From an uncultured Candidatus Saccharibacteria bacterium (GTDB taxonomy: Bacteria > Patescibacteriota > Minisyncoccia > Phycocordibacterales > DATDWN01), in NCBI GenBank assembly GCA_964576615.1, contig CAZNUU010000005.1, positions 1 to 50,484 of the forward strand: a stretch of DNA of 50,484 nt, given 5' to 3'. Positions 6,508-42,090 of this stretch are shown here, piece after piece (position 1 is the stretch's first letter; each line of letters opens with the position of its first letter). The translations under genes were made by a program, and so were the position numbers. The notes under the pieces were generated by a model. It made no database searches. It was not told where the DNA came from and saw only the letters and a list, made by a program, of their open reading frames with translations.

Positions 6508-6759
6508 TTACGGCTTAGAGACATTAATTAAACCAAGTTTCTTTTCTCTCCGCCAACCCTTGATTTCTGTTTCCCTTCTTCTCGCTTCGATTAAAGTGCT
6601 AAATTTTTCCGAGTACAATAAAATTACTGGTCTTCTAATCTTTGTATAATGTGCACCCGACTTTGAACTATTATGCTGTTCGATTCTTCTCTCTAAATTA
6701 TTTGTACAACCAACATTCAAAGATTTATCTGAACATTTGAGTATATACGTAAAATACAT
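6508..6759 (-). CDS. Stand-alone GIY-YIG nuclease
   Basis: YFTYILKC..LNVGCTNNLERRIEQHN..YTKIRRPV.L.YSE..A.RRE.EIKGWRREKK. Confidence 0.9.
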   Translation of the reverse strand: MYFTYILKCSDKSLNVGCTNNLERRIEQHNSSKSGAHYTKIRRPVILLYSEKFSTLIEARRRETEIKGWRREKKLGLINVSKP

Positions 6760-14435: not shown

Positions 14436-15314
14436 CTAAAGCTCTCGCTCGGCCAAGATAAATTCATCAATCTCTCCGTCTAAAACTGCGTCCACTTTTG
14501 ATGTTTCTACGTTAGTCCGGTGATCCTTGACCATCTTATATGGATGTAAAACATAGGAGCGAATTTGGTTGCCCCATTCGATCTGGGTTGTTTTGGAAAT
14601 ATACATACCTTTTTCCTTCGAAATTCTTTCTTCTTCCAAAGCTTTATAAATTTTACCTTTCAAAATTTGGAGAGCTTTTTCTTTGTTTTGGGCCTGGGAG
14701 CGTTGGTTATCACTCTGAGCGGAAAGATTTGTGGGGAGATGAACAACTCGCACCGCAGTTTCGCGCTTGTTTACATTTTGTCCTCCCGGACCAGAGGAGC
14801 GAGAGAACTCGACCTTAAGTTCACTCTCTGGAACTTCAAAATCACCTGTCTTTTCAAATTTTGGAATAACTTCAACTAATGAAAAAGATGTGTGCCTCAA
14901 CGACTTCGAACTAAAGGGCGAAATCCTAACTAGACGATGAACTCCGGATTCGTTTTTGAGCGTGCCGTAAACATTTTTACCCGAGATTTCTACAGTAATA
15001 TTGCGATAGCCTCCATGATCATTTTCATTTTGGTGAACAATCGTGACCGCAAACCCCTTCTTAGCACAAAATTTTAAATACATGTTAAGGAGCATGGCTG
15101 AAAAATCCTCAGCATCATCACCGCCTGCCCCCGAGAAAATGGTCATATGCGCATCACCCTTATCATATTTCCCCTCCCCTGCAATCTCCGATTTTAATTC
15201 CTGAATTCTGCGTATAGTAGCCTGAGCCTTATCTTTGTTAGTCCAAAAATTAGCCGAATTCATTTCGGCTTCAAGATTTTCTAACTCTAGCTTAAGGTTG
15301 TCCATACCTGACAT
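14436..15314 (-). CDS. prfB: Peptide chain release factor 2 (short, no frameshift segment)
   Basis: GVHRLVRISPF (SPF), GPGGQNVNK and WGNQIRSYVLHPY motifs. True start is 15314 or 15305, since the track start lies inside a tRNA. Confidence 0.9.
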   Translation of the reverse strand: MSGMDNLKLELENLEAEMNSANFWTNKDKAQATIRRIQELKSEIAGEGKYDKGDAHMTIFSGAGGDDAEDFSAMLLNMYLKFCAKKGFAVTIVHQNENDHGGYRNITVEISGKNVYGTLKNESGVHRLVRISPFSSKSLRHTSFSLVEVIPKFEKTGDFEVPESELKVEFSRSSGPGGQNVNKRETAVRVVHLPTNLSAQSDNQRSQAQNKEKALQILKGKIYKALEEERISKEKGMYISKTTQIEWGNQIRSYVLHPYKMVKDHRTNVETSKVDAVLDGEIDEFILAEREL

Positions 15315-15322
15315 CTTACCAG

Positions 15323-15393
15323 AGCCGAAGATGAGAATCGAACTCATGTTAGTACTTTACGAAAGTACCGTTCTGCCACTGAACTACTTCGGC
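15323..15393 (-). tRNA. tRNA-Thr(CGT), CCA not encoded
   Basis: GCCGAAG/CTTCGGC acceptor, GTTC/GAAC D-stem, GTACT-TTCGTAA-AGTAC anticodon arm, ATGAG-TTCGATT-CTCAT T-arm. Confidence 0.9.
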
Positions 15394-15647
15394 TTCATTT
15401 TAATATAGCCGTCTTTGATAATTTTCTCAATATAGTCTTTCCTTTTTAGTTTCTTTAATCTGCATTCTATATTCCTTGCGACTTTAAGAGAATCGGACTT
15501 CTGTGAAAACACCATGACCAAATCCTTCATTCTCTTTGTAGAATACGTGTGTCCATAATAATGTTGACTGATTCTTCTCTTTAAATCTGTAGTACTACCA
15601 ATATAAAAATTACCTTTTGAATTTTTAAGAATGTATACGTATCCCAT
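15384..15647 (-). CDS. Stand-alone GIY-YIG nuclease; stop codon overlaps tRNA-Thr 5' end
   Basis: MGYVYIL...FYIGST.DL.RR..QH...ST...E.RLKKLK. The TAG stop is tRNA nt 8-10. Confidence 0.88.
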   Translation of the reverse strand: MGYVYILKNSKGNFYIGSTTDLKRRISQHYYGHTYSTKRMKDLVMVFSQKSDSLKVARNIECRLKKLKRKDYIEKIIKDGYIKMKPK

Positions 15648-15652
15648 ATGAA

Positions 15653-15730
15653 CTACCAAAGCCGACGTTTCAGTCGGCTCCCCGACCCCCGAAATACTTC
15701 GTAGGGGCGTCGGGGCTGAGCTACTCTGGC
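15653..15730 (-). pseudogene. tRNA 5' fragment with hairpin insertion in the D-loop
   Basis: GCCAGAGTAGCTCAG (15730-15716), two GC-rich hairpins (CCCCGAC/GTCGGGG and AGCCGAC/GTCGGCT), then TTGGTAG. Confidence 0.65.
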
Positions 15731-15761
15731 TTACTCAGAAGTTTAATTCAGCTCGGGTCAA

Positions 15762-16082
15762 TTAAGCAAGACGAGTTCTTACCAAATTTGTTGTATATAA
15801 GCCTAAATCTCTAAAAAAGAAAACACCGGAGATTAAAACCGAAATTGAAAGTAACTTTACAATCACTCCTGTCTGCCAAAAAGCTTGAGCCAGAAAAGAT
15901 GGAGAACCGTGTGTTAGTAAGACATTTGCAAAGACACTAGGCACCGAGACGAGAAAAGAGAGAGTTAGATACAAACCACAAAGAATTACAAGCTCCGGAA
16001 CAAAAGGATTCTTCAACTTGCGAATTGTATAAAGTACATAGACTCGCCACATTATTCTTTTTTCTAAATTTAATATTTTCAT
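15762..16082 (-). CDS. Small two-TM membrane protein coupled to ECF sigma (possible anti-sigma)
   Basis: Overlaps the sigma factor stop by 4 nt; hydrophobic. Confidence 0.6.
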   Translation of the reverse strand: MKILNLEKRIMWRVYVLYTIRKLKNPFVPELVILCGLYLTLSFLVSVPSVFANVLLTHGSPSFLAQAFWQTGVIVKLLSISVLISGVFFFRDLGLYTTNLVRTRLA

Positions 16083-16630: not shown

Positions 16631-16735
16631 AGTGGGAGCTAAGGGTAAAGAGCACATTTTTGTGCTCCACCTTTAGCTATTAATCTCGACCCCTTCATTA
16701 TATTACAACGCAGTAGTGGCCAAAATGTTGCATTG

Positions 16736-41304: not shown

Positions 41305-41589
41305 CTATAAACCTAAATGGTGTACGCTCAAAATAAGAAGCCCGGTTGCTACGATTTGAGCAACTACAATTCTTTCCGTGATCATTTCATTTTCTCTCCA
41401 ATTTCTGAAGGCAAAATGAAGTACTAGTATCGGGGCTAAAACAAGCCATATTTGAAAAAGGTGGGCACCAACCCCCTCGTCTGGCTGGTAAACAACACCA
41501 TATTTTGAAACATCTAGAATAATCCAAGAAATAAAAACTACCGGCACAAGTATCGGCACCCAAGCCCCTGGTTTTTTTAAAAGATTCAT
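41305..41589 (-). CDS. Small three-TM membrane protein; ATG overlaps tRNA CCA
   Basis: MNLLKKPGAW..PDEGVGAHLFQIWL. The track start at 41682 lies across the tRNA. Confidence 0.65.
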   Translation of the reverse strand: MNLLKKPGAWVPILVPVVFISWIILDVSKYGVVYQPDEGVGAHLFQIWLVLAPILVLHFAFRNWRENEMITERIVVAQIVATGLLILSVHHLGL

Positions 41590-41680
41590 GGCGGAGACGG
41601 ATGGATTCGAACCATCGGTGCCTTTTAAGGGGCACGCCTCTTTAGCAAAGAGGTACATTAGACCACTCTGACACGTCTCC
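41589..41680 (-). tRNA. tRNA-Ser(GCT), CCA encoded
   Basis: GGAGACG/CGTCTCC acceptor, CCTCT-TTGCTAA-AGAGG anticodon arm, long variable arm, G73. Confidence 0.95.
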
Positions 41681-42000: not shown

Positions 42001-42090
42001 GGACAGATGGGTGAGTGGTTTAAACCAACGGTTTACTAAACCGTCGTACCTTAACCGGTACCGCGAGTTCGAATCTCGCTCTGTCCGCCA
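42001..42090 (+). tRNA. tRNA-Ser with ACT anticodon (A34), CCA encoded
   Basis: GGACAGA/TCTGTCC acceptor, ACGGT-TTACTAA-ACCGT anticodon arm, GTACC/GGTAC variable arm, G73. Confidence 0.9.

Follow-up and report, generated by a model that had tools for sequence, protein, structure and literature searches.

The locus described here raises the question of how a gene for an 87-residue nuclease came to lie between a fragment of a tRNA gene and a complete tRNA gene, with its stop codon inside the latter. It belongs to an uncultured Candidatus Saccharibacteria bacterium (GCA_964576615.1, contig CAZNUU010000005.1, positions 1–50,484); this whole stretch of 50,484 nucleotides (nt), with a G+C content of 39.5%, is referred to as the window, and its sequence was found in two runs labeled rock metagenome. 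The same arrangement recurs across Patescibacteria, and this recurrence is the decisive evidence that it is real. We see about an even chance that the locus is one copy of a free-standing selfish cassette of the homing endonuclease type, for which the tRNA gene would serve both as the target and as the homology for repair.

Read on the minus strand, the locus opens with an orphan copy of tRNA nt 1–15 (GCCAGAGTAGCTCAG; 15716–15730), the left part of a split tRNA 5′ fragment. Two GC-rich hairpins follow. Hairpin 1 (15680–15715) has the form CCCCGACG-loop-GTCGGGG with a 7-bp stem and a CCGAC/GTCGG core, its loop forming an inner stem, whereas hairpin 2 (15660–15679), recognized by sequence and fold, reads AGCCGAC-TGAAAC-GTCGGCT. 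The tRNA copy then resumes with the D-loop continuation TTGGTAG (15653–15659, tRNA nt 16–22) and is separated by the spacer TTCAT (15648–15652) from an open reading frame (ORF) for a GIY-YIG protein of 87 amino acids (15384–15647, ATG at 15647, TAG at 15386–15384). The ORF runs into a complete tRNA-Thr(CGT) (15322–15393; identified by ARAGORN, Rfam score 67.8 bits). Its TAG stop codon corresponds to tRNA nt 8–10, which results in an overlap of 10 nt. A promoter-like sequence, TTGAGA-17 nt-TATATT, is located within the last codons of the ORF (I-E-K…G-Y-I; 15402–15430). An initial annotation of the window, made from the letters alone, had listed the orphan, the hairpins, TTGGTAG, the ORF, and the complete tRNA on the minus strand and had proposed that the tRNA 5′ end supplies the stop of the ORF; sequence, ARAGORN, Rfam, and Pfam agree with it on both counts, coordinates included. 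When up to three mismatches were allowed, every match of the orphan 15-mer within the window was a genuine tRNA 5′ end (chance expectation 0.5).

A scan with one genome per species yielded 80 loci with 81 ORF copies. In 65 of the 81 copies, a tRNA on the same strand starts within −25 to +20 nt of the stop codon, and 23 of these 65 display exactly the 10-nt overlap of the window (stop at tRNA nt 8–10). The tRNA lies 20–130 nt away in 7 further copies, of which the three inspected closely (L017, L044, and L045) carry an extra hairpin-bearing fragment between ORF and tRNA. The tRNAs represent 17 anticodons, chiefly those for Arg, Thr, Phe, Lys, Asn, Val, and His. The order is that of the window: a tRNA 5′ fragment, two GC hairpins, the rest of the D-loop, a few A-rich bases, the GIY-YIG ORF (85–92 codons), and the complete tRNA, altogether about 0.4 kb. 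Upstream of nearly all ORFs, the beginning of the adjoining tRNA is present a second time (most of L002–L081, and L162–L166), this copy usually comprising tRNA nt 1 to 21–26 and sometimes reaching up to 36 nt upstream of the tRNA. At most loci this fragment is 90–100% identical to its tRNA. The end segment of an essential gene is present on both sides of the ORF, the gene being completed by one of these two copies. The notion of a nuclease-only unit that is tied to tRNA genes and devoid of an integrase, with a duplicated tRNA 5′ part ahead of a complete tRNA and a recurrent overlap of ORF and tRNA, was thus borne out well beyond the single locus from which it had been drawn.

The hairpin pair splits the tRNA copy seamlessly in nearly all loci and without a target duplication. 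Its position was parsed automatically, except for about 14 loci with nested hairpins, which the parse left out and which were read by eye. According to the parse, the hairpins are inserted after nt 15 in 28 loci, after nt 10–11 in 14 loci, at nt 7, 18, 22, or 26 in single loci, and after nt 33 in one locus (L058), which belongs to the His lineage; in two other members of that lineage (L046 and L069), they were found by eye at the anticodon loop. The proposal that the element enters at the D-loop fits this lineage-specific placement: in the window, the hairpins interrupt the copy cleanly between nt 15 and 16, and in other lineages the junction lies between nt 10 and 11 or in the anticodon loop. 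In a neighbor-joining tree of the ORFs, the groups correspond to hairpin position and D-arm type and not to tRNA identity: one group has the hairpins between TTCAA and YGGATAG (Arg), one between TAG and CTCAG, one between CTCAG and TTGGTAG, and one in the anticodon loop (His). From this agreement of the tree with hairpin position and D-arm, every nuclease lineage appears to be linked to one position in a D-arm sequence. A mirror form occurs in L040 and L029, where the complete tRNA comes first and the ORF is followed by a hairpin-bearing tRNA copy that lacks the first bases. L080, of which the upstream side was read, starts like this mirror form, with a complete tRNA directly upstream of the ORF.

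The gene downstream of the window tRNA is prfB, encoding release factor 2 (RF2; 14436–15314, minus strand; Pfam PCRF and RF-1 domains; start at ATG 15314 or 15305). As a conserved downstream neighbor of tRNA-Thr(CGT), it marks the orthologous locus in other genomes. Relatives were collected by a metagenome scan with the window RF2, which returned 80. In at least 14 of them (RF2 52–77% identical), tRNA-Thr(CGT) ends 0–10 nt before the prfB start, and none of these loci contains the GIY-YIG ORF, the hairpins, or the orphan fragment. The plain tRNA-Thr(CGT)-prfB arrangement in these relatives identifies the window locus as an insertion, the difference in presence and absence being one between species (at the RF2 identities given) and not within one population. 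The initial annotation had called for relatives with an empty locus and had reasoned that an orphan fragment persisting there without the nuclease would speak against its interpretation; at least 14 such relatives exist, and the orphan fragment is absent from them. The other outcome that would have spoken against it, an overlap of GIY-YIG gene and tRNA that does not recur, is contradicted by the recurrence described above. In the assembled contigs of the source samples (three runs, probably DNA, two of which contain the sequence), neither an empty allele nor a joint was seen.

Regarding prfB itself, the longest ORF opens within the tRNA at ATG 15347 (minus strand; region 15305–15347). Since the prfB of the relatives starts with an ATG directly after the tRNA 3′ end, the start in the window is probably ATG 15314 or 15305. 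The window RF2 is encoded in a single frame, and a programmed frameshift is not apparent. In L085, about three tandem copies of a unit of approximately 121 nt (TCGAAAGTCGGAGCGATTCCTGTTTTAGCAAAAACAGGACGCGAGACG…), unrelated to the hairpins, are located between about 900 and 560 nt upstream of prfB.

The two tRNA copies of the window differ in their D-arms, which bears on the origin of the orphan. The ORFs closest to that of the window (70–77% protein identity) are found at tRNA-Thr(TGT) or tRNA-Thr(GGT) with the canonical D-arm TAGCTCAGTTGGTAGAGC, and all of these elements have the same hairpins and the 10-nt overlap. The D-arm of the orphan (TAGCTCAG, continued beyond the hairpins by TTGGTAG) is of this canonical type, the usual target of the window ORF lineage, whereas the D-arm of the complete window tRNA (TAGTTCAGTGGCAGAAC) is of the type native to tRNA-Thr(CGT) of this clade (L082, L087, L113, L115, L127). 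Most likely, the orphan arrived with the cassette and the resident tRNA-Thr(CGT) was kept. Judging by these D-arms, the orphan is probably an element-borne piece of a canonical tRNA-Thr gene and not, as had first been supposed, the displaced 5′ end of the resident gene. At most other loci, the orphan and the copy within the gene are too alike to tell their origin.

The synteny of close relatives adds to the history of the site. L082, the closest syntenic relative, shares a sigma factor gene and ORF106 in synteny with the window, yet it lacks the cassette, and its tRNA-Thr(CGT) adjoins tRNA-Thr(GGT). The comparison of window positions 16658–16734 (minus strand) with L082 positions 864–960 shows tRNA-Thr(CGT) directly after tRNA-Thr(GGT) in L082, whereas the window is cleanly without it at this place; the sole tRNA-Thr(CGT) of the window is the one preceding prfB. 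This difference indicates that a tRNA-Thr(CGT) gene moved between close relatives. In L165, a cassette of the same lineage is located at tRNA-Thr(GGT) and is followed by a plain tRNA-Thr(CGT) and prfB.

An intron-like interruption had also been proposed. In such an arrangement, or in a split gene, the orphan 5′ fragment would be joined in RNA to the downstream tRNA body, and the intervening hairpins, ORF, and second 5′ end would be lost from the product. The fragment equals tRNA nt 1–15 at many loci, so that the joined product would be indistinguishable from a normal tRNA. However, the downstream tRNA is already complete and scores 67.8 bits, and ARAGORN in intron mode returned only this complete tRNA. 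Apart from tRNA, no family and in particular no group I or group II intron or other ribozyme was detected by an Rfam scan of positions 15200–15900 (E ≤ 10). The orphan acceptor sequence GCCAGAG mismatches the tRNA 3′ strand CTTCGGC, and all hairpin-bearing copies examined lack part of the tRNA and are truncated pseudogenes. We regard such joining as highly improbable. The suggested alternative outer acceptor stem, formed by GCCAGAG and CTCTGGT (15324–15318), is probably due to chance and was discarded as evidence: the first three of the seven bases of CTCTGGT are part of the GGCTC end of nearly all tRNA-Thr(CGT) of the relatives, which leaves only TGGT as extra sequence.

The direct repeat GTAGTTCA on both sides of the ORF (15656–15649 and 15387–15380) is likewise probably a chance occurrence and does not recur. 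As a candidate target-site duplication, it was rejected, because it consists of two conserved GTAG motifs plus a coincidence of 4 nt and is absent from the five closest elements. A target-site duplication produced by staggered nicks, or a circular intermediate, was considered as a possible route of entry.

No other non-coding part of the element is as conserved as the hairpins, which are not incidental. Both fold as predicted (DNA minimum free energy, z = −3.6 versus shuffled sequences). A 7-bp stem built around the invariant CCGAC/GTCGG core is common to them all, and this core is kept across all ORF lineages. The stem pairs outside the core covary: among 143 hairpins picked on the core alone, the outer two stem pairs are of the Watson–Crick type in 129 and 128 cases, respectively (permutation approximately 53–62, maximum 74), with three to four pair types at each position. 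In an alignment of a single lineage, the stems are invariant and the loops are free. The loops range from 2 to 55 nt and often contain another hairpin of the same kind. The core of hairpin 1 is followed by G and that of hairpin 2 is preceded by C; by their sequences, the two read as mirror images, and their outer arms could also pair with each other. The hairpin 2 region (window 15654–15687) was also found on other contigs of runs X1 and X2 with 1–4 differences, one of these contigs being deeper than the window (21.8 vs 6.7). Such copies in the same metagenomes point to sister cassettes in the community.

This conservation makes it necessary to ask whether the folded hairpins themselves, as extruded cruciforms or in single-stranded DNA, are the true substrate of the enzyme. 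A structure-specific, Slx1-like nuclease would then cause the hairpins, the ORF, or both to be copied into tRNA-like sequence, in loose analogy to the dependence of REP elements on RAYT or of IS200/IS605 ends on TnpA, and the tRNA duplications would be by-products that allowed the cell to survive. The constant core combined with a variable loop length would fit recognition of a folded stem better than that of a duplex palindrome, and Slx1 is among the nearest folds of the protein. Nested hairpins and duplications of whole pairs (L002, L003, L049, L069), as well as pairs in tRNA copies without a nearby ORF (L045, L049, L068, L153), point in the same direction. Most stem pairs deviating from Watson–Crick geometry are A·C on the sense strand, corresponding to G·T on the antisense strand (15 vs 4), which could be taken as a further sign, but these are only 19 pairs, too few to decide between RNA and DNA or between the strands. 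On the other hand, GIY-YIG enzymes are hydrolytic and have no known strand-transfer activity, and the standard form of the cassette has hairpins on one side of the ORF only. The pairs are also not scattered over the genome: this locus is the only one with hairpin pairs in the 50-kb window, and in the related loci surveyed they are found mainly inside or beside tRNA-derived sequence. On balance, copying driven by the hairpins appears rather unlikely.

A second non-coding signal is superimposed on the 3′ end of the ORF. The sequence TTGAGA-17 nt-TATATT matches the promoter consensus at 10 of 12 positions, and the end of its −10 hexamer lies 8 nt upstream of the first tRNA base, a distance that is found in 15 loci. 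The conserved peptide I-E-K-I-I-K-D-G-Y-I corresponds to TTGARA-N17-TAYATH in the DNA. The first isoleucine (Ile73) is specified by ATT in 42 of 54 cases, compared with 160 of 367 isoleucine codons elsewhere in the same ORFs (p = 3 × 10−7). Where residue 81 is tyrosine, it is followed by ATT, which gives TATATT; where it is phenylalanine, the next codon is ATA, and TATAAA arises one to two bases further on. The coupling of Tyr/Phe81 to the next isoleucine codon is significant (Fisher p = 2.5 × 10−5). This codon choice supports selection on the DNA itself. It is consistent with the ORF providing a promoter to a tRNA that is cut off from its own, while the ORF itself may be transcribed from a captured tRNA promoter just upstream of the orphan.

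The close association of ORF and tRNA could alternatively reflect a host-useful or addictive module acting on RNA, in which the nuclease would attack the tRNA or its precursor and the hairpin leader would regulate or process the shared transcript. Co-expression would be in keeping with the strict co-orientation of ORF and tRNA and with the embedded promoter. The long vertical persistence under purifying selection would suit such a function, too, and so would the retention of the fragment and the stems although the ORFs differ at saturated synonymous sites. Among tRNA-modifying enzymes, COG4123 is a tRNA m6A37 methyltransferase. Prokaryotic Slx1-like stand-alone GIY-YIG proteins are reported to be fused to methyltransferases or to form operons with them, including an orthologue of TrmH, which modifies position 18 of the D-loop (PMC1564403). 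Against this explanation stands the patchy distribution: the unit is absent from at least 14 orthologous loci, resides at other tRNAs in relatives, and is associated with 17 anticodons. Partial tRNA duplications and decaying hairpin pseudo-copies are hallmarks of insertion, and a position of the hairpins 5′ of the ORF in the standard form and 3′ of it in the mirror form is ill-suited to a fixed leader. We therefore judge an RNA-level role of this kind unlikely.

The ORF product matches the Pfam family GIY-YIG (PF01541) with 50.7 bits (cut-off 22.6; E = 2 × 10−13), thus exceeding the curated threshold, and represents a stand-alone GIY-YIG domain of the UPF0213/Slx1-like branch. A profile built from the family alignment matches the UPF0213 structures 1zg2 (1 × 10−11) and 1ywl (1 × 10−9). 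The AlphaFold2 (AF2) model (predicted local distance difference test score, pLDDT, 89) has the element order β-β-α-α-β-α-α, which corresponds to the GIY-YIG fold with its three-stranded sheet between helices, and the best Foldseek matches were UPF0213 proteins (1zg2, 1ywl), the N-terminal domain of UvrC, and Slx1. Beyond this single domain, the protein has only a conserved basic helix at its C terminus. In 39 homologues, Y15, G17, R25, and H29 do not vary, and conservation of Y5 and E61 reaches at least 90%; by analogy, these positions may include the tyrosines of the GIY and YIG motifs, the catalytic arginine, and the metal-binding glutamate. The ORF is under purifying selection, as the ratio of nonsynonymous to synonymous substitutions (dN/dS) between related copies is 0.12–0.33. 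Close homologues of 85–92 amino acids number 156, with named sources mostly in Parcubacteria, Paceibacterota, or Patescibacteria, and a profile search returned 879 clusters at 50% identity (E ≤ 1 × 10−10). The window encodes a second small GIY-YIG protein (6508–6759, minus strand; 83 amino acids) with approximately 33% identity over 70 amino acids. It resembles an ordinary UPF0213-type protein and has no adjoining tRNA, hairpins, or tRNA fragment.

For the selfish cassette, we envisage the following sequence of events. The nuclease would introduce a break into the D-arm of an unoccupied tRNA gene or close to it, the exact position depending on the nuclease lineage, and the occupied copy would serve as the template for the repair of the break. 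Both homology arms would consist of tRNA sequence, namely the split fragment and the complete tRNA. With tRNA sequence as homology on both sides, no integrase would be needed, and the cassette could invade any genome at an identical or similar tRNA gene. The interruption of the redundant copy would be marked by the hairpin pair, which probably abolishes the nuclease site there or prevents a deletion between the repeats. Transcription of the ORF would start from the captured tRNA promoter, and the last codons of the ORF would at the same time form the replacement promoter of the tRNA. At loci with the stop codon inside the tRNA, it would be lost upon cleavage by RNase P, possibly keeping nuclease levels low. 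A bolder version, which we consider possible although doubtful, would make the cassette a new class of prokaryotic mobile element, whose minimal Slx1-like GIY-YIG enzyme recognizes the folded double hairpin or cloverleaf-forming tRNA-gene DNA in place of a long duplex site, copies itself into tRNA genes phylum-wide, rebuilds the gene by means of the partial duplication, and brings a promoter written in codons.

Several points weigh against the selfish cassette. We infer cleavage of the unoccupied allele and mobility from sequence, the lineage-specific hairpin position being indirect evidence of the former. In the occupied allele, the intact tRNA gene stays beside the ORF and it is the redundant copy that is split; a site located wholly inside the tRNA would survive the insertion, although classical homing requires its destruction. 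A separate DNA-binding domain, as present in I-TevI, I-BmoI, or the Seg proteins, is missing from the 87-residue protein. A simple insertion model also fails to account for the short stretch of tRNA that is kept between hairpin 2 and the ORF. As to the tempo, the most similar ORFs of different species do not exceed 89% DNA identity. In the syntenic pair L005/L013, the element (approximately 72% identical) has diverged about as much as its flanks (65–68%), which indicates long vertical residence and not rapid turnover. L162 and L166 have a homologous upstream gene in common and both carry the cassette at tRNA-Thr(TGT). Finally, moves between tRNA species should leave mismatched acceptor stems, and only one tRNA, in L013, looks chimeric. 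Mismatched acceptor stems are not generally in excess among tRNAs adjacent to a cassette (1 of 72 vs 12 of 152).

The single chimeric-looking case is the tRNA-Thr(TGT) beside the cassette of L013 (2767–2840). Its 5′ strand GCCGCCT faces the 3′ strand AAGTGGC with a C6·A67 mismatch and a G4·U69 wobble, and its sequence has the look of recombination between two types of tRNA-Thr. The orphan of L013 is the same as that of its syntenic relative L005. No very recent jumps between tRNA species were found among the ORFs, pairs at different tRNAs reaching at most 77% DNA identity.

Signs of past turnover exist as well. Hairpin-bearing tRNA fragments without an ORF were found in L044, L045, L047, L049, L068, and L153, and remnants of older ORF 3′ ends, up to 36 nt long (L005), are located upstream of some fragments. 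Both kinds of relics fit repeated invasion and loss. Fragments that are 90–100% identical to their tRNA, together with unchanged stems, indicate that these parts are maintained and not merely decaying. In L068 (870–1075), an intact tRNA-Arg(CCT) is preceded by two units in tandem that are not separated by a nuclease ORF; each unit consists of a leader of approximately 20 nt, tRNA-Arg nt 1–10, a hairpin pair, and nt 11–23, so that the leader is duplicated, too. In L049 (2834–3070), a complete tRNA-Arg(GCG) is followed by two near-full-length copies of tRNA-Arg. Both extra copies lack the first bases and have a hairpin pair in the D-loop, one of the pairs with a nested third hairpin.

Elsewhere in the window, two divergent tRNA-Ser genes are located about 320 nt apart (42001–42090, plus strand; 41589–41680, minus strand). 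One of them was assigned the unusual anticodon ACT by ARAGORN (Rfam 57.7 bits), the other GCT. An A at position 34 is rare among bacterial tRNAs.

If the selfish-cassette reading is true, tRNA genes of Patescibacteria, which comprise a large share of bacterial diversity and have tiny genomes, are colonized by a very compact selfish element that employs neither an integrase nor a ribozyme. It would illustrate how invasion of an essential RNA gene from the 5′ side can leave that gene functional, and it would assign a biological role to one branch of the uncharacterized UPF0213/Slx1-like proteins. The recurrent tRNA pseudo-fragments, and possibly many short ORF-bearing contigs in metagenome assemblies, would find an explanation. 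A nuclease of 87 residues would be at hand whose positions in a conserved target are lineage-specific and apparently programmable, and codons doubling as a promoter would constitute a neat case of dual coding. For genome annotation, the ORFs and tRNA fragments of the cassette would become recognizable and could be named systematically.

Among known systems, genomic islands and prophages that target tRNA genes resemble the cassette in their insertion site and in the duplication of the displaced part, which preserves function. They employ tyrosine or serine recombinases, duplicate the tRNA 3′ end, and span kilobases, whereas the cassette relies on a nuclease only, duplicates the 5′ end, and measures 0.4 kb. 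The sole gene of the window element is the 87-residue GIY-YIG ORF and the repeat is one of the tRNA 5′ end, which sets it apart from integrase-type islands. Short GC-rich paired hairpins with a conserved stem, nesting, and local duplication are also features of repetitive extragenic palindromes (REP) and bacterial interspersed mosaic elements (BIME) with their REP-associated tyrosine transposases (RAYT), and of the double-hairpin elements and GC clusters of fungal mitochondria. Elements of the REP/BIME-RAYT type are tied to a dedicated nuclease-type gene. The cassette differs from REP/RAYT in the enzyme family and in that its hairpins lie within or beside tRNA-derived sequence, adjacent to the ORF or its remnants, and are not dispersed. 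It also cannot be placed with REP/RAYT or IS200/IS605 elements, for its only protein is of the GIY-YIG type, an HUH (Y1) enzyme is absent, and the hairpins of the standard form are one-sided.

The stand-alone UPF0213/Slx1-like proteins BH0048 (1zg2) and EF2693 (1ywl) are the closest match in sequence and fold and share the size and the single domain of the cassette nuclease (PMC1564403). Unlike the latter, proteins of this type have no known tie to tRNA genes or hairpins. SegB of phage T4, a free-standing homing enzyme of the GIY-YIG type, has tRNA genes as its targets and can cut those of its own genome, too (PMC2330249). Like the cassette ORF, segB is a GIY-YIG gene among tRNA genes. The conserved tRNA-gene motif recognized by SegB provides many potential targets, and the gene spreads together with neighboring tRNA genes (PMC2330249). 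SegB tolerates sites in its own genome (PMC2330249). Differences concern the size (666 bp, approximately 221 amino acids, vs 87 amino acids), the motif, which is the T-psi-C region for SegB and would be the D-arm for the cassette, and the setting, as SegB is a phage enzyme with neither a partial tRNA duplication nor a hairpin module and the cassette is chromosomal.

The nearest counterparts are the mobile ORFs (mORFs) of fungal mitochondria, which duplicate a gene terminus, as described for atp6 of Allomyces macrogynus and for atp6, atp9, cox2, and nad3 of Glomus (PMC3630166). In both systems, a free-standing endonuclease gene, in some mORFs also of the GIY-YIG type, is located at the end of an essential gene (PMC3630166); a doubled terminal segment keeps the gene intact, one copy remaining as an unused orphan; and the distribution among relatives is patchy without the involvement of an integrase. 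The cassette deviates in that the host gene is a tRNA gene, of which the 5′ end or, in the mirror form, nearly the whole gene is duplicated, in that a conserved double hairpin invariably interrupts the redundant copy, in the small size of the nuclease (87 amino acids), and in its hosts, which are free-living ultra-small bacteria and not organelles. Moreover, the copy within the gene is foreign and the orphan native in mORFs, whereas the window appears to be reversed, with a foreign orphan. Full-text literature searches retrieved no prior description of this arrangement. We conclude that the cassette belongs with the mobile endonuclease ORFs that duplicate a gene end, and there is a real chance that its mechanism, if it depends on the hairpins, is new.

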